A stretch of DNA of 60,905 nucleotides from an uncultured Desulfobacteraceae bacterium (GCA_964440775.1 CAYTXJ010000001.1:1-60905), one strand, 5' to 3'; shown: positions 35 to 60,341, counted from the stretch's first letter. The notes: generated by a model not told the origin, from the letters alone. Program-made: numbers and translations.

Positions 35-188
35 GAAAGCTTTGCATAACCCCCCCTTTTACACTGGGGGTTACACCCCCTTCCAGGTCGGATGACCCTC
101 CGGGTCGGAGACCAGACCCCCAAAAATTAACTTAAAATAACCCAAAATTTCAGCTTTTTTCAGAGAGCTTTAAAAATTTAAAGCTCTC
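35..188 (-). mobile_element. MITE-like intergenic element, copy A (154 bp, reverse orientation; short-type core plus two GGTCnnCCGACC units)
   Basis: Its reverse complement aligns end to end with the copies at 23454-23573 and 35816-35935. The ends are GAGAGCTTTAAA...CAAAGCTTTC. It is flanked by AAAAAT at 29-34 and 189-194. Its hairpin overlaps the last codons of rluD. Confidence 0.8.
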
Positions 189-8815: not shown

Positions 8816-10396
8816 TTAGAGTTCTATTTTTCTTGCTGAAAATATGTGCGGCATACCTTTTAGTTCATTCAATAACTCTTCTTGAACAGATACGTTGGTG
8901 CTGAGGAGAATCACATTCTGCCTCTTTTCCCTTTCTTGACCCACATGCATCCTCTGAATATTAACATTGTGTTTCCCAAGCACACTTCCTATCTTGCCAA
9001 TAACTCCAGGTATATCTTCATTGTGAATCAATAGCATATGTCCTTCAGGCACTGCCTCTAAGTAAAAGTTGTTTATTCTAAGCAACCGAGACATTGTCTT
9101 ACCGAATATGGTCCCTGATATTATATTTTCTCCCTCACTTGCCTTTACCTTTACAGAGATTAGGGATGCAAAGTCTTCTGACCTCTCGGTCTTGCTTTCC
9201 ATCACCTCTATGCCCCTGTCTTTGGCAATAAGGGGGGCATTTACAAAATTTACCTCTTCACCTACCACCTTGCTTAAAAGCCCTTTGAGAAGTGCAGTAG
9301 TTATGGGAGATAGATCGTATGAGGTGATGGTGCCTTTATAGGTTATCTGGACCCCCTCTATCGGGGTTTCAACAAGCTGGCTATGAAACATGCCTATCTT
9401 TTCTGCAAGCATTGCATAGGGCCGCAGGACATTCAGGAGCTCAGAACTTATGGATGGCATATTTACCGCATTCTTTACTGTGCCATGGAGCAGATAGTCC
9501 ACCATCTGCTCAGCGATCTGACGGGCCACATTTTCCTGTGCCTCACGGGTAGATGCTCCTAAGTGCGGTGTGCAGATAAAGTTAGGTAGCTCCATCAAAG
9601 GGATCTTCCCAGGTGGCTCAGTGCTAAACACGTCCAAGGCGGCACCACCTAAGTGCCCCTCTCTCAATACCCTATATAGGGCATCCTCATCTACAATCCC
9701 ACCCCTTGCACAGTTTATCAACATCGCACCCCTCTTCATCTTCCTCATCTCCTCCTCTCCTATCATCCCCACTGTCTCGTCACTCTTCGGAACATGTATG
9801 CTCACATAATCAGACCTTCTTAATAGCTCATCCAAGGAAACAGGTTCAAAGCCCATCCTTTCCAATACCTCTACATTTATATAGGGATCATAGACCACTA
9901 CACCCATCCTCAAACCCTTGGCCCTATCAGCCACTATTCTGCCAATTCTTCCAGCACCAATAATTCCCAAAGTCTTACCACACAGCTCCCTTCCCTGAAA
10001 CCTCTTCTTCTCCCACTTGCCCTCCTTCATGGTAGCATCTGCCTGAGCTATATTCCTGCTAAGCGCCATCATAAGCGCAATGGCATGCTCAGCAGCAGAC
10101 AGAGAATTACCCCCAGGAACATTCATAACCACCACACCACGCCTGCTGGCAGCCTCCACATCAATATTGTCTAAGCCCACCCCGGCCCTCCCTATAACCT
10201 TAAGCCTGCCAGCCGCATCTATAACCCTTGAACTCACCTTTGTGGCACTCCGCACCACCATGCCCTCATACCCACCTATCACCTCCACTAACTCATCCTC
10301 ACTCAACCCCACCTTTACATCCACCCCAATACCAGGTGCCTCCTCAAATACCTTAACTCCTACCTCAGATAAATTATCACTGATTAAAACCTTCAT
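8816..10396 (-). CDS. serA: D-3-phosphoglycerate dehydrogenase (long form with ACT domain)
   Basis: 526 aa with the NAD fold GIIGAGRIGRIV, the catalytic region of 2-hydroxyacid dehydrogenases and a C-terminal ACT-like domain. Confidence 0.95.
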   Translation of the reverse strand: MKVLISDNLSEVGVKVFEEAPGIGVDVKVGLSEDELVEVIGGYEGMVVRSATKVSSRVIDAAGRLKVIGRAGVGLDNIDVEAASRRGVVVMNVPGGNSLSAAEHAIALMMALSRNIAQADATMKEGKWEKKRFQGRELCGKTLGIIGAGRIGRIVADRAKGLRMGVVVYDPYINVEVLERMGFEPVSLDELLRRSDYVSIHVPKSDETVGMIGEEEMRKMKRGAMLINCARGGIVDEDALYRVLREGHLGGAALDVFSTEPPGKIPLMELPNFICTPHLGASTREAQENVARQIAEQMVDYLLHGTVKNAVNMPSISSELLNVLRPYAMLAEKIGMFHSQLVETPIEGVQITYKGTITSYDLSPITTALLKGLLSKVVGEEVNFVNAPLIAKDRGIEVMESKTERSEDFASLISVKVKASEGENIISGTIFGKTMSRLLRINNFYLEAVPEGHMLLIHNEDIPGVIGKIGSVLGKHNVNIQRMHVGQEREKRQNVILLSTNVSVQEELLNELKGMPHIFSARKIEL

Positions 10397-10475
10397 CTTA
10401 TTTCTCCCTTAAAAAATAGACTATTTTATTATATGGTTAACATAAAGAGATTTCAATAGGGATAAAAAGACAGAT

Positions 10476-11471
10476 ATGGAATTTACAGCATTTCAGAAAA
10501 AGGCCCTTGGCTTTTTAAGGACTGCCATAAAAAAAGGGAGGGTATCCCATTTCTATCTCTTTTTAGGAAAGAGAGGTGTGGGAAGAAAGGAAGTGGCCTT
10601 GTGGTTTTCAAAGGCGCTAAATTGTAAGGAAGGCATGGGAGAGGTGTGTGGTAGGTGTTCAAACTGCATGAAGATAGAAAAAGAGGTATTTTCTGATGTG
10701 ATATATATAGAGCCTTTGGAAAAGAGCCTTAGGATTCAACAGATAAGGGAGCTTTCATCCATGTTATCTTATCCGCCTTTAGAAGGGAGATTTCGGACGG
10801 TGATAGTGGAAGAGGCAGAGTCCCTTACAGAAGAGGCATCCAATGCATTCTTAAAGATCCTGGAAGAGCCTTCTCCATATAACATATTTATACTTATATG
10901 TCAGAAAAAGGAGCTGTTGCTTCCAACTATTGTTTCCAGGGCACAGAGTGTGTATCTGAGTGACATATCCGAAGGTTCAATTAAGAGTTATCTGATATGG
11001 GAAGGGGTATCAGAATCTGATGCAGCCTTTATTTCCCGCATCTGTCAGGGGAGTATTAAAGATGCCCTTGATCTTATAGAAAGAGGAGTCTCTAAGAAGA
11101 GGGAGAGGTTCCTAAGGATACTGCTTGATCTAAAAGAGGGCTCTCTTAGGGATATATTCAGGTTGATAGAAGATCTTTCTAAGAAGAGCAGGAAAGGGGA
11201 TGATCTGGAATTAGATGATATGATCATAATATGGAAAAGTTTCTTGAGGGATATGATGTTTTGCAGGCTTGGCTTTGAAGATTATATGTTGATAAATCAT
11301 GATCTTTTTCATATCTTTAAAAAGCTTTCACAAGGCTTTTCAGTGGATGATATTATCTCTATTATAAGACTACTTGATCAGTTTCAGAGGGATATGGATC
11401 AGCAGAGGAATACGGAGATATCAATGGAAAGAGCCATCTTTGGAATAAGGGAATTAATAGGAAAGATATAG
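10476..11471 (+). CDS. holB: DNA polymerase III delta-prime subunit
   Basis: 331 aa with an AAA+-like GKRGVGRK, the Zn module CGRCSNC and TIVSRAQ. Confidence 0.85.
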   Translation: MEFTAFQKKALGFLRTAIKKGRVSHFYLFLGKRGVGRKEVALWFSKALNCKEGMGEVCGRCSNCMKIEKEVFSDVIYIEPLEKSLRIQQIRELSSMLSYPPLEGRFRTVIVEEAESLTEEASNAFLKILEEPSPYNIFILICQKKELLLPTIVSRAQSVYLSDISEGSIKSYLIWEGVSESDAAFISRICQGSIKDALDLIERGVSKKRERFLRILLDLKEGSLRDIFRLIEDLSKKSRKGDDLELDDMIIIWKSFLRDMMFCRLGFEDYMLINHDLFHIFKKLSQGFSVDDIISIIRLLDQFQRDMDQQRNTEISMERAIFGIRELIGKI

Positions 11472-17373: not shown

Positions 17374-17568
17374 GAGAGCTTTGAATTTTTTAAAGCTCTC
17401 AGAAAAAGCTGTAAATGGAATCTGTCATTGCGAGGGTCTTAAAAGACCCGAAGCAATCTGAGAATGGTTCTTGGTTCGAGGTTCGGGGGGTAGAAGGGGG
17501 ATGAGATTGCTTCGCTTCGCTCGCAATGACAGGGGTTGTAGTGTAAAAAGGGTTTATGCAAAGCTCTC
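17374..17568 (+). mobile_element. MITE-like intergenic element, copy B (195 bp, long type)
   Basis: It has the GAGAGCTTTGAA hairpin, AGAAAAAGCTGTAA, the GTCATTGCGAG...CTCGCAATGAC palindrome and ...TTATGCAAAGCTCTC. It is flanked by ATAAA at 17369-17373 and 17569-17573. Confidence 0.85.
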
Positions 17569-23453: not shown

Positions 23454-23573
23454 GAGAGCTTTGAATTTTTCAAAGCTCTCAGAAAAAAGCTGTAATTATG
23501 GGTTATTTTAAGTAAATCTTTGGGGGTCTGGGGGTGTAACCCCCAGTGTAAAAGGGGGTTATGCAAAGCTCTC
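23454..23573 (+). mobile_element. MITE-like intergenic element, copy C (120 bp, short type)
   Basis: It shares its full length with copy E. It is flanked by AAGTT at 23449-23453 and 23574-23578. Confidence 0.85.
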
Positions 23574-23584
23574 AAGTTTATTAA

Positions 23585-24637
<1,053 letters not shown>

Positions 24638-28983: not shown

Positions 28984-29010
28984 GAGAGCTTTGAATTTTT
29001 TAAAGCTTTC
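28984..29010 (+). repeat. Solo 27-bp hairpin of the MITE-like family (copy D)
   Basis: GAGAGCTTTGAATTTTTTAAAGCTTTC, flanked by AGGAA at 28979-28983 and 29011-29015. Confidence 0.8.
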
Positions 29011-35562: not shown

Positions 35563-35793
35563 ATGGAAAGGGAGATGGATCAATTTTTGGTATTGGAACA
35601 GAAGATAGATGCACTTATTGAATATATAAAGAGGCTAAAGGAAGAGAATGAATCGATGCGGGAGAAGATTCGGGTTCAGGAGGACAGGATCACTGATCTG
35701 AACTCTGAGATTGAAAAGCTGAGAACAGAGAGGAACCAGGTCGGTCAGCGGATAATGTCAATCCTTGAAAAGATGGAAAAGATTGAGTTATAA
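35563..35793 (+). CDS. zapB: Small coiled-coil cell-division protein, ZapB-like
   Basis: 76 aa, essentially all heptad coiled coil, immediately upstream of zapA. Confidence 0.6.
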   Translation: MEREMDQFLVLEQKIDALIEYIKRLKEENESMREKIRVQEDRITDLNSEIEKLRTERNQVGQRIMSILEKMEKIEL

Positions 35794-35815
35794 TTAATAT
35801 ATGTCATATGTAAAG

Positions 35816-35935
35816 GAGAGCTTTGAATTTTTTAAGGCTCTCAAGAAAAGGCTGTAATTATGGGTTATTTAAAGTTAATTTTTGGGGGTCTGGGGGTGTA
35901 ACCCCCAGTGTAAAAAGGGGTTATGCAAAGCTCTC
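35816..35935 (+). mobile_element. MITE-like intergenic element, copy E (120 bp, short type)
   Basis: Near-identical to copy C. ATGTAA occurs at 35808-35813 and 35936-35941, an imperfect junction duplication. The 3' end contains the zapA ATG. Confidence 0.85.
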
Positions 35936-36323: not shown

Positions 36324-36350
36324 GAGAGCTTTGAATTATTCAAAGCTCTG
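36324..36350. repeat. Solo hairpin of the MITE-like family (copy F, degenerate)
   Basis: GAGAGCTTTGAATTATTCAAAGCTCTG. No flanking duplication was seen. Confidence 0.7.
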
Positions 36351-36399: not shown

Positions 36400-37962
36400 A
36401 TGGATCTTTTGCACGCAATATTAGGTGGTTTAGCAGTTCTAGTATTGGGCTTTATAATAGGATTTTGGCTCAGAAGGAAGCTATCCGAAAAAGAGCTTCA
36501 ATCTATAAAGGAATATTCTAAAAAGCTCATAAATGATGCCCATAGAGAGGCCAAAAATATAAAGAAAGAGGCCATGATAAAGGCAAAAGATACTCTTTAT
36601 CAGATGAAACTTGAATTTGAAAGGGAAACCCGGGAGACCAGGGAGCAGCTTCAGGCACAAGAACGGAGACTGTTTCATAAACAGGAGGCACTGGATAGAA
36701 AGATTGAACTCTATGAGCAGAAGGGGAGGGGGTTAAAGGAAAAGGAAAAAAATCTTGAGCGGATAGAAAGTGAGCTTGTTCAAAAGCAGGATGAATATGA
36801 AAGACTTATTGAGGAGAGAAAGAAGGAGCTGGAACGGGTTGCTGGAATTTCTAGGGAGGAGGCAAAGCAGCTTCTGATTGAGAGTATGGAATCTGAAGCA
36901 AGGCATGAGGCAATAAAGCTGATTAAAAAGATTGAAACCGAGGCAAGGGAAAGTGCTAAACAGAAGGCAGAGGAGATAATAGCCCTTGCCATTCAGAGAT
37001 ATGCAGGGGAGTATGTGAGTGAAAAGACCGTAGCTGTAGTAAATTTACCTAATGAGGAGATGAAAGGCAGGATAATAGGAAGAGAAGGAAGAAATATCAG
37101 GGCAATTGAGGCAGCCACAGGTGTGGATCTCATCATAGATGATACTCCAGAGGCGGTGATAGTTTCTGCATTTAATCCTATAAGAAGAGAGGTTGCAAAG
37201 ATTGCCCTTCAGAGGCTGATTGATGATGGAAGAATCCATCCTGCCAGGATTGAGGAGATGGTAGAGAAGGTGAGAGAGGAGATTGAACAGAGCATAAAGG
37301 AGGCAGGGGAGCAGGCTGCTTTTGATGTGGGAGTTCATGGGATCCATCCTGAACTTATAAAGCTGCTTGGAAGATTAAAATACAGGTCCAGTTACGCACA
37401 GAATGTGCTTCAGCACTCCAAAGAGGTGAGCTTTCTCTGTGGTATCATGGCAGCAGAGCTGGGATTAAATGTTAAGAGGGCCAAGAGAGCAGGGCTGTTA
37501 CATGATATTGGAAAGGCCGTGGATCATGAAGTGGAAGGTCCCCATGCACTGATCGGGGCAGATCTTGCCAAAAAATTTGGGGAGTCTAATGAGGTGGTGC
37601 ATGCCATAGCTGCTCATCATGAAGAGGTTCAGCCAGAGACCGCCTTAGCGGTTATTGTTCAGGCTGCAGACAGCCTCTCTGGGGCAAGGCCCGGGGCAAG
37701 GCAGGAGATGCTTGCCTCATATGTAAAGAGGCTGGAAGAACTTGAAAATATAGCCAACTCCTTTAAGGGAGTGACCAAGTCCTTTGCCATACAGGCAGGT
37801 AGAGAGATCAGGGTTATGGTTGCAGAGGATCTTGTAGATGATGATAAGACCTATATGCTCTGCAAAGAGATTGCCAAAAGGATAGAAAAGGAATTAACAT
37901 ATCCAGGGCAGATTAAGGTCACGGTTATAAGAGAGACCAGAGCAGTGGACTATGCAAAATAG
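36400..37962 (+). CDS. rny: Ribonuclease Y
   Basis: 520 aa with an N-terminal TM, a coiled coil, a KH domain ([15 protein letters not shown]) and an HD domain (LLHDIGKA). Confidence 0.95.
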
Positions 37963-38125
37963 AGAGCTTTGAATTTTTCAAAGCTCTCAGAAAAAAGCTG
38001 TAAATGGAATTTGTCATTGCGAGGGTCTTAAAAGACCCGAAGCAATCTATAAAAGGTATGAGATTGCTTCGCTTCGCTCGCAATGACAGGGGTCGCAGTG
38101 TAAAAAGGGGTTATGCAAAGCTCTC
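37962..38125 (+). mobile_element. MITE-like intergenic element, copy G (164 bp, long type)
   Basis: Its first G is the last base of the rny TAG. It is flanked by AAATA at 37957-37961 and 38126-38130. It contains the GTCATTGCGAG palindrome at 38013-38087. Confidence 0.85.
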
Positions 38126-53137: not shown

Positions 53138-53639
53138 ACTGATTACAGGCCTCTTTTCCTCTGACAGGACTCTTATATTTAAAGTTATTGAAGAGCTTGA
53201 ACAGATATTTGGAGACATAGACTGGATAAGCCATGAACTTTCCTTTGACAGAACAAGATATTATGAAAAGGAGATGGGTTGGCCCCTCTGGAGAAGATTT
53301 TTATCCTTTAAAAGGCTTATAGATCCAGAGGATATCGCAGATATTAAGATTACCACAAATGAGGTGGAAAAGAGGTATTTAAGAGGCAATAAGAGGATGA
53401 TAAATATTGATCCTGGATATATCTGCCTTGAGAGATTGATCCTTGCAACCGGGAAAAACTATGCACACAGAATATATCTAAACAGAGGTATCTATGCAGA
53501 TCTCACACTGATATATAAAAAGGGAAGTTTTATTCCTTTAGGATGGACATATAAGGACTATGCAGATCCTGAGATCATAAGGCTGTTTAATATAATACGA
53601 GATGCCTATAAGAGGCAGATAAGAGGGATACACCTATAG
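53106..53639 (+). CDS. Conserved hypothetical protein, DUF4416-like
   Basis: 177 aa with NIDPGYICLERLILATGKNYAHRIYL. It overlaps ugd by 32 nt. Its TAG stop is the first three bases of repeat copy H. The family name is from memory. Confidence 0.5.
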   Translation: MSLPREPEKAKLITGLFSSDRTLIFKVIEELEQIFGDIDWISHELSFDRTRYYEKEMGWPLWRRFLSFKRLIDPEDIADIKITTNEVEKRYLRGNKRMINIDPGYICLERLILATGKNYAHRIYLNRGIYADLTLIYKKGSFIPLGWTYKDYADPEIIRLFNIIRDAYKRQIRGIHL

Positions 53640-53884
53640 AGCTTTGAATTTTTCAGAGCTCTCAGAAAAAGCCGTAAATGGAATCTGTCATTGCGAGGGT
53701 CTTAAAAGACCCGAAGCAATCTGAGAATGGTTCATGGTTCGAGGTTATAGGTTCGGGGGTTAAAAGGGGGGATGAGATTGCTTCGCTTCGCTCGCAATGA
53801 CAGGGGTCTGGTCTCCGACCTGGAGCGGTCTCCGACCCGGAGGGGGTGTAATCCCCAGTGTAAAAAGGGTTATGAAAAGCTCTC
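53637..53884 (+). mobile_element. MITE-like intergenic element, copy H (248 bp, composite type)
   Basis: It combines the long-type palindrome, two GGTCTCCGACCyGGAG units and the short-type 3' module. It is flanked by ACCTA at 53632-53636 and 53885-53889. Confidence 0.85.
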
Positions 53885-53907
53885 ACCTATAGAGGAGGAA
53901 TATTTCG

Positions 53908-60314: not shown

Positions 60315-60341
60315 GAGAGCTTTGAAAAATTCAAAGCTCTC
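60315..60341 (-). repeat. Solo 27-bp hairpin of the MITE-like family (copy I)
   Basis: GAGAGCTTTGAAAAATTCAAAGCTCTC. The A-rich loop implies reverse orientation. No flanking duplication was seen. Confidence 0.75.

Follow-up and report, generated by a model that had tools for sequence, protein, structure and literature searches.

How can short intergenic repeats keep the same two ends from site to site and differ in what lies between them? The question is raised by copy H, a repeat in an uncultured Desulfobacteraceae bacterium that lies within the window, by which the whole 60,905-nt stretch analysed here, contig 1 of the draft genome G000, is meant throughout. The answer that we consider probable is that copy H and its relatives are non-autonomous terminal-inverted-repeat elements (MITEs, miniature transposable elements of the inverted-repeat type) with a modular interior, whose mosaics are formed for the most part in situ, through ectopic gene conversion and through slippage and deletion at hairpins, with capture of foreign palindromes as a further contributor. 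The evidence that carries this explanation comes from loci shared by two genomes of one genus, at which flanks, target duplication and private mutations have been kept, yet the interiors differ.

Copy H is composed, from its 5' end, of a hairpin, the A module, the imperfect palindrome P (with the mini-hairpin m and a long loop, L), two U units, the hairpin K and the 3' module (Table 1), and its predicted folding as DNA reaches -44.4 kcal/mol (z = -5.7). The 5' hairpin occurs eight times in the window, and the shared strings far exceed the expectation by chance, with three matches of the 3' module (0.00 expected) and six of GTCATTGCGAG (0.38 expected). In the initial annotation of the window, the copies were described as mosaics of interchangeable cassettes, and this description was confirmed: the strings were found in their places, and copies A, B, C, E, G and H are composed as described. 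Its minimum of four recombining cassettes stood as to the recombination and had to be raised to about 10 as to the number. Copy H, said to be the largest and to combine all cassettes, is the largest within the window alone, copies of 269, 279 and 284 nt being present elsewhere in G000 (these carry the further cassettes Q and X described below), and it does not combine them all, as it is without the short-type left segment TTATGGGTTATTTTAAGT...

Table 1. Parts of copy H, further members of the family in the window, and copies of a second family with the same ends. Positions are those of the window unless a contig is named; the last column gives the state at the orthologous site of G001, the other genome of the genus.
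Feature	Position	Strand	Description	G001
Copy H, full element	53637-53884	+	248 nt	full, same site, other cassettes
Target duplication of copy H	left 53632-53636, right 53885-53889		ACCTA	
5' hairpin of copy H	53637-53663	+	left terminal inverted repeat and its inverted copy; 12-bp stem, TTT loop	
A module (constant), then palindrome leader	53664-53686	+	AGAAAAAGCCGTAA, then ATGGAATCT	
Cassette P	53687-53801	+	115-nt imperfect palindrome; inverted pair of GTCATTGCGA...GAAGCAATCT units	
Subparts of P	left arm 53687-53722, loop 53723-53774, right arm 53775-53801			
Cassette m	53697-53712	+	mini-hairpin GGGTCTTAAAAGACCC in the GAA loop of the left P unit, CGA/CGA on both sides	
7-nt tandem repeats GGTTCNN	53730-53759	+	4 copies, within the long loop	
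Cassette U	53810-53842	+	two 17-nt tandem mini-hairpin units, GGTCTCCGACCTGGAGC and GGTCTCCGACCCGGAG	
GGTCTCCGACC units	53810-53826 and 53827-53842			
Cassette K	53842-53856	+	hairpin GGGGGTGTAATCCCC; alternative allele GGGGTCGCAGTG, "no-K"	
3' module (constant)	53857-53884	+	ends in right terminal inverted repeat ...AAAGCTCTC	
Copy A, full	35-188	-	short core S, two U units, K	
Copy B, full	17374-17568	+	P with m and long loop, no-K allele	precise empty site, single ATAAA
Copy C, full, 120 nt	23454-23573	+	short core S and K	precise empty site, single AAGTT
Copy D, solo 27-bp hairpin	28984-29010	.	AGGAA duplication	absent
Copy E, full	35816-35935	+	short core S and K	precise empty site, single ATGTAAA
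Copy F, solo hairpin	36324-36350	.	degenerate	absent
Copy G, full, 164 nt	37962-38125	+	P with m and short loop, no-K allele	solo hairpin only, same site, same AAATA duplication
Copy I, solo hairpin	60315-60341	.		
Second family	C150:3070-3701, C117:5340-5453, C129:853-1022		truncated copies on C208, C213, C219, C32	

Composition and spread of the family

The draft genome G000 comprises 2.17 Mb in 229 contigs, with 40% G+C and a completeness of 93.6%. It holds 206 loci of the 5' hairpin, of which 152 are followed by the A module and were classed as full, 46 are solo hairpins of 27 bp, and 8 lie at contig edges; 92 copies, 64-284 nt in length, are complete within contigs, and 55 are cut, mostly by contig ends. 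The element is bounded by terminal inverted repeats (GAGAGCTTTG), the left end GAGAGCTTTGAA matching the reverse complement of the right end GAGAGCTTTGCA (as a pair, GAGAGCTTTGAA / TGCAAAGCTCTC), and 845 of 920 terminal pairs in the complete copies are complementary. Exact duplications of 4-10 bp (mode 5-6) flank 61 of these 92 copies, as opposed to 1.8 expected from shuffled flank pairs. No copy lies inside any predicted open reading frame (ORF) of G000. The family thus combines the features by which MITEs are recognised, namely terminal inverted repeats, target duplications with empty sites, small size, non-coding content and high copy number. Among the 41 relatives searched, the full element is confined to G000 and G001. 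Given that family motifs are present at 31% of the contig ends of G000 versus 2.9% of random windows, the family is a main cause of the fragmentation of this assembly and explains about a third of the contig breaks.

The 92 complete copies resolve into 25 architectures, assembled from about 10 cassettes whose borders are reproducible across the genome; the same cassettes and borders recur in 20 copies of G001, together with further combinations. Neither of the outcomes that would have counted against the initial annotation, unrelated families with the 27-bp hairpin in common by convergence or borders that shift from copy to copy, was thus observed. In 5' to 3' order, the hairpin and the A module are followed by a core, the junction GGGGTC, a K or no-K side and the constant 3' module. 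The loop of the 5' hairpin is TTT or, in 14 of the 92 copies, AAA, the latter form being the exact reverse complement of the hairpin. The core is either the short core S (TTATGGGTTATTTTAAGTTAATTTTTG) or the leader with palindrome P. On the K side, TGG precedes 0-3 U units (17-nt tandem mini-hairpins in two allelic forms, sometimes accompanied by a 36-nt extension, X) and hairpin K, all of which are replaced by GGGGTCGCAGTG in the no-K allele. P is itself variable: a minimal form exists, m may be present or absent between its bracketing CGA/CGA, the loop may be short (ATAAAAGGTATG) or long with 1-4 copies of the 7-nt repeat, and a second palindrome, Q, or half of it, is joined to P by fixed linkers in some copies. 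Each cassette forms a stem-loop of its own on both strands. When the cassette characters were compared pairwise, all four combinations were found for 15 of 18 pairs.

Whether the smaller units also occur alone was answered differently for the two that had been singled out. The GTCATTGCGAG palindrome does so, as set out below, whereas the U unit was found only once outside the family, in a related element and without a flanking duplication of its own; U behaves as an expanding and contracting tandem array and not as a separately inserting element. A second non-coding family, of 114-632 nt, has the same terminal repeats (GAGAGCTTTGAA... / ...TTTGCAAAGGTCTC) around an unrelated interior, of which a 3' part of ~110 nt is conserved among copies; one of its copies (C32:1-40) contains U-like units in the opposite orientation. 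The existence of two families with the same ends supports a common enzyme acting in trans.

Replacement of interiors at fixed loci

Contig 1 of G001 is syntenic with window 10453-60221 at ~92% identity, so that the same insertions can be compared in two species as a natural time series for small repeats. At locus G, the full element and the solo hairpin are interconverted in place (Table 1). At locus H, the copy in G001 is without m, two of the 7-mers and an 11-nt junction piece and has the other U allele, and the two orthologues are at least four cassette events apart. The same is seen at loci outside the window. At C66/L160, flanks and duplication are identical, and the core is S in one genome and P in the other; at C109/L163, private mutations of both end modules are shared, and the interior consists of Q with no-K in one genome versus the short loop with K in the other. 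The remaining pairs differ in the number of U units (two versus one, C136/L156), in a linker and an extra unit (C19/L171), or in type (truncated S versus full P, C3/L153), and one site is empty in G000 and occupied in G001 (C31/L157). The cassette content was different in every shared full copy that was examined. Such copies have changed their module content while the surrounding genes have barely changed, so that in a wild bacterium the rate and the mechanism of both processes, ectopic gene conversion and the instability of hairpins, become accessible to measurement.

A further case is the strain contig L175, on which the locus of copy H carries the canonical no-K allele in place of the two U units and K. 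This allele (TCGCAGTG) matches exactly the no-K sequence found in other copies, and a single deletion in the K allele could not have produced it; it bears the mark of conversion from another copy. Together with the 15 of 18 cassette pairs and the orthologous copies, it bears out the suggestion of recombination among family members made in the initial annotation, and of the two processes proposed there, the data support recombination over nested insertion as the one that does most of the reshuffling. The synteny between the two genomes breaks at window 10453 (region ~10396-10476), exactly where G001 has a full element (G001:C1:88156-88308), which suggests that rearrangements happen at family copies.

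According to the mechanism proposed here, movement would require the constant ends alone, that is, the 5' hairpin with the A-rich module and the 3' module. A transposase acting in trans would cut the target with a stagger of ~5-6 bp, as indicated by the duplications and empty sites, and the interior would be a dispensable cargo, a chain of self-contained DNA hairpins that can be altered by four routes. The first, capture of a foreign palindromic unit (P or Q), can be regarded as demonstrated. The second would be slippage of the tandem mini-units, for which the observed variation (0-3 U units, 1-4 7-mers) speaks. Deletion between short direct repeats around hairpins would form the third, for instance of m between CGA and CGA; the collapse to a solo 27-bp hairpin that is seen at locus G would be reached most simply by deletion between two direct copies of CAAAGCTCTC. 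The fourth would be frequent ectopic gene conversion among the ~200 copies, with the constant ends of ~42 nt and ~45 nt as homology arms; the outcome, replacement of the interior at fixed loci, is directly observed, and a process of the RecA type would presumably lie behind it, in which hairpin-induced breaks may play a part.

Several observations weigh against this explanation. The enzyme is one of them, since no autonomous insertion sequence (IS) with the same ends was found in G000 at its 93.6% completeness, the eight candidate repeat-bounded intervals containing housekeeping genes only. The sole strong DDE match in G000 is to a gene of the IS1380 family, the ends of which are not assembled on its 1.4-kb contig. 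Such transposase genes (292 bits versus NF033539) are located on contig C210 (1401 nt) of G000 and at G001:C123:4646-5359, with an identity of only ~79% between the two genomes, and both contigs end within the IS; matches to DDE_Tnp_1 and rve were considered as the cognate transposase and dropped for want of matching ends. The variable length of the duplication is unusual for one DDE enzyme. Both genomes are metagenome bins from short reads, so that interiors more than ~100 nt from a flank may be mis-joined, and a comparison of two genomes without an outgroup does not polarise the changes as gain or loss. The pair C66/L160 could, in formal terms, represent independent insertions of different subtypes at one site; for C109/L163, this is excluded by the shared private mutations. 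Lastly, the intergenic copies between co-directional genes are oriented 44 with and 8 against the gene direction (p = 4e-7), a bias for which an in-place model of the MITE does not account.

Four other explanations were given consideration. Pure nested transposition, in which each cassette would be a small mobile element that has entered a resident MITE and the copies would not exchange sequence, appears unlikely. It would agree with the independence and wide distribution of P, with the location of m in a hairpin loop between CGA/CGA and of Q within the loop of P, and with the single occurrence of U-like units, reversed, in a different element (C32). Against it, S and P substitute for each other and neither is inserted in the other, P, where it lies in the MITE, is not flanked by its own duplication, U is not found alone elsewhere, the canonical no-K allele turns up again at a fixed locus, and private mutations of the ends are kept while the interior changes.

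That the cassettes are modules of a functional transcript, a regulatory or mRNA-stabilising RNA whose combinations are under selection for RNA structure, is in our estimation quite unlikely, even though the orientation bias and the strong folding of all copies speak for it. Both strands fold about equally well, and the mismatches in the stems (sense-strand G-T versus A-C, 11 versus 17 in the hairpin and 5 versus 15 in K) show no excess of G-T, so that the hairpins look like DNA palindromes and not like selected RNA helices; a difference in architecture at every shared orthologous locus also argues against constraint. Comparison with Rfam returned only a tRNA in the window and nothing better than E = 2.7 overlapping copy H, and a consensus scan for promoter-like or terminator-like sites inside the copies found none. 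Replication strand was rejected as the cause of the orientation bias, the gene direction being a better predictor than skew (7 versus 1 discordant cases).

An origin of the short and long types as independent subfamilies with the same ends, in which the mosaics would reflect the sampling of many founders, is very unlikely. The second family, with the same ends and an unrelated interior (C150:3070-3701 and others), provides a precedent, and the no-K allele is nearly restricted to the palindrome type (19 of 20); the free combination of cassette characters in most pairs and the different cassette states at orthologous loci with shared private mutations speak against it. An assembly artefact, in which De Bruijn graph paths through a 200-copy repeat would have yielded chimeric interiors, is the least credible of the four accounts: the frequency of family motifs at contig ends and some public contigs that change partners within an element (L194, L198, L210) are compatible with it, but in 4-9 independent public assemblies, for which different assemblers were used, copies B, C, E and H have an identical sequence (copy H in 9), and the S/P, K/no-K and m differences lie ~45-80 nt from unique flanks, inside single reads. 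Copy B is fixed in six other assemblies, and copy C in others too. Contig L210 (ENA ERZ2433807 NODE_27745; window 35780-35935) links, through the element, the left flank of copy E with the right flank that belongs to the copy at C20:22078 of G000 and represents either a genuine recombinant or a chimera from assembly at low coverage.

The palindromic cassette and small GIY-YIG genes

The GTCATTGCGAG palindrome has an existence of its own. At about eight loci of G000, it stands without the MITE, in the form of units (GTCATTGCGA, 4-30 nt, GAAGCAATCT) that are arranged singly or in alternating clusters. Many copies, likewise without the MITE, are present in other families of the order, and the units extend to Chloroflexota, Patescibacteria, Bacteroidota isolates, Planctomycetota, Cyanobacteria, Proteobacteria and others, as well as to plasmids of cultured strains, always unannotated. 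The nested insertion of palindromic units, the other process envisaged in the initial annotation, is supported by this independence. A collection of 153 units from 120 loci has the form GTC-ATTGC, a variable hairpin, and GCAAT-CT, each unit forming a hairpin, ATTGC...GCAAT, with GAA as its loop. The minimal unit contains GCGAAGC. Among the variable inserts, GCGNAGC, with each of the four bases found at N, is the most frequent; this is the consensus of a DNA mini-hairpin of very high stability (PMC13037366). More than 85% of the P units of G000 are inside the MITE, which is therefore their main vehicle in that genome.

An indication of their source was obtained from three loci (L108, L051 and L234) at which an inverted pair of P units exactly brackets a gene for a 95-aa single-domain GIY-YIG protein. 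The bracketed genes span Planctomycetota (L051), another phylum, and the order to which G000 belongs (L234), PF01541 gave scores of 56.8 and 65.4 bits, and the right arm at L051 is identical to that of the MITE; L063 is a partial case. Of six GIY-YIG ORFs, three have a unit no more than 150 nt away, compared with 11% of control ORFs. In L235 and L225, it is variant units (GTCATTCTGAG and GTCATTCCGAG) that enclose the homologues, and unit and gene thus vary together. Because the stop codon overlaps the right arm in L234, the short loop of P, ATAAAAGGTATGA-GATTGC, resembles a fusion of the start region of such a gene to its stop. From these sequence comparisons, we infer that P is probably a gene-less remnant of a small GIY-YIG nuclease cassette, consisting of its pair of terminal hairpin units. 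If so, transposon-type MITEs are linked to the hairpin ends of GIY-YIG cassettes, and such hairpins can hitch-hike inside MITEs.

No intact small GIY-YIG gene is present in G000, where only UvrC and a 45-aa fragment were found, and the association in the 41 relatives between the exact P arm and a GIY-YIG homologue is not clean, the gene being present without this variant of the unit in several genomes and the reverse occurring too. Most small GIY-YIG genes in the relatives are flanked not by P units but by another repeat (CCCTGTTAAATA), as exemplified by L222, L226, L229, L230 and L233 (G025, G034), in which genes of 86-92 aa lie between inverted CCCTGTTAAATA...TATTTAACAGGG repeats; the fragment in G000 (C47:103-177) is of the CCCTGTTAAATA type. 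An 89-aa GIY-YIG ORF in G001 (L221, G001:C46:752-949) appears to be located in 23S rRNA-like sequence and may be an intervening sequence.

An inverted pair of hairpin units around a small GIY-YIG gene is also the organisation described for Ssn, a group of GIY-YIG single-strand nucleases flanked by NTS/dRS3 and Ssn-related motif (SRM) hairpins (PMC11893778). As with Ssn and SRM, the P unit starts with a GTC head and continues as a hairpin (ATTGC...GCAAT), a GIY-YIG gene of ~95 aa is enclosed by inverted copies, the sequence of the unit changes with the gene, and gene-less copies far outnumber genes; the differences are that G000 is devoid of an intact gene and that its units travel mostly in the MITE. 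When checked by hand, GTCATTGCG did not fit the published SRM pattern HGTCWYN(0-2)YYVSBRH... (PMC11893778), which needs two pyrimidines after GTCWY, where the P unit has T-G, G-C or C-G. Since P, Q, m, U and the junction J all start with GTC and a short hairpin, it is conceivable, if doubtful, that all of them are recognition hairpins of Ssn-type nucleases. Were this the case, the MITE would be a vehicle that has amplified nuclease target hairpins to hundreds of copies, single-strand breaks made by the nuclease or by the hairpins would drive the very fast conversion of cassettes, and GTCATTGCGAG...GAAGCAATCT, with the core GCGNAGC, would define a pan-bacterial class of Ssn-cassette ends missed by the published SRM motif.

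Known kinds of repeat and neighbouring genes

Among the kinds of repeat described so far, the closest is the modular BOX element, known from Streptococcus pneumoniae and S. suis (PMC3049150), a MITE-like composite with terminal inverted repeats and target duplications, in which constant ends (boxA and boxC) enclose a variable number of independently folding interior modules (boxB), and whose size at a fixed locus varies from strain to strain; for S. suis, alternatives to both the end modules and the interior ones are described (PMC3049150). The family studied here has the same constant ends and independently folding variable modules, the content of which varies at fixed loci. There is no sequence similarity, and the family differs from BOX in having about 10 types of cassette, cores that replace one another, a captured foreign palindrome as one of its cassettes, and a 5' end that is itself a hairpin and can persist alone as the 27-bp solo form.

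For cassette P, BIME and REPIN are the nearest relatives in kind (PMC2817692, PMC3116915), given that P, like a REPIN, is built from a ~27-nt unit doubled in inverted orientation, and that its alternating clusters are joined by fixed linkers (CCATTACACC), as in BIMEs. In contrast to REP and REPIN, the MITE makes target duplications and the P units are without the GTAG head. The RAYT/Y1 transposase was rejected as the mobiliser of the palindrome, for no gene was found in G000 (no match to PF01797), and the seven Y1 loci in unit-rich relatives have no units adjacent to them. Correia, ERIC and other bacterial MITEs (PMC3184786, PMC10969869) are likewise short, intergenic and often co-transcribed, with inverted repeats, duplications and a high copy number, and have variants that arose by internal insertion or deletion; they occur in one or two size variants, as opposed to 25 or more architectures here.

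A 2024 review of MITEs makes no mention of nested, mosaic or modular MITEs or of gene conversion, and literature searches with the strings of the family, both sequences and repeat-derived peptides, returned nothing relevant. The family is new in sequence and belongs to a kind of bacterial repeat that is already known, of which it is a new and well-documented example. Three features exceed what has been described: the number of interchangeable cassettes, the direct evidence of interior replacement at fixed loci and the carriage of hairpins of the GIY-YIG-cassette type.

The copies also affect the genes next to them, to which they supply stop and start codons, a matter of consequence for annotation. 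The first base of copy G completes the stop codon of rny (window 37987-37989), and the ATG of zapA is supplied by the 3' module of copy E (window 35923); in G001, where copy E is missing, the reading of the zapA region continues across the empty site. In one sample (L203, JGI 3300005265, aligned to window 23554-23600), a 31-nt deletion between GGGGTTATG and GGGGTATG takes out the 3' terminal repeat of copy C and the spacer before mreB.

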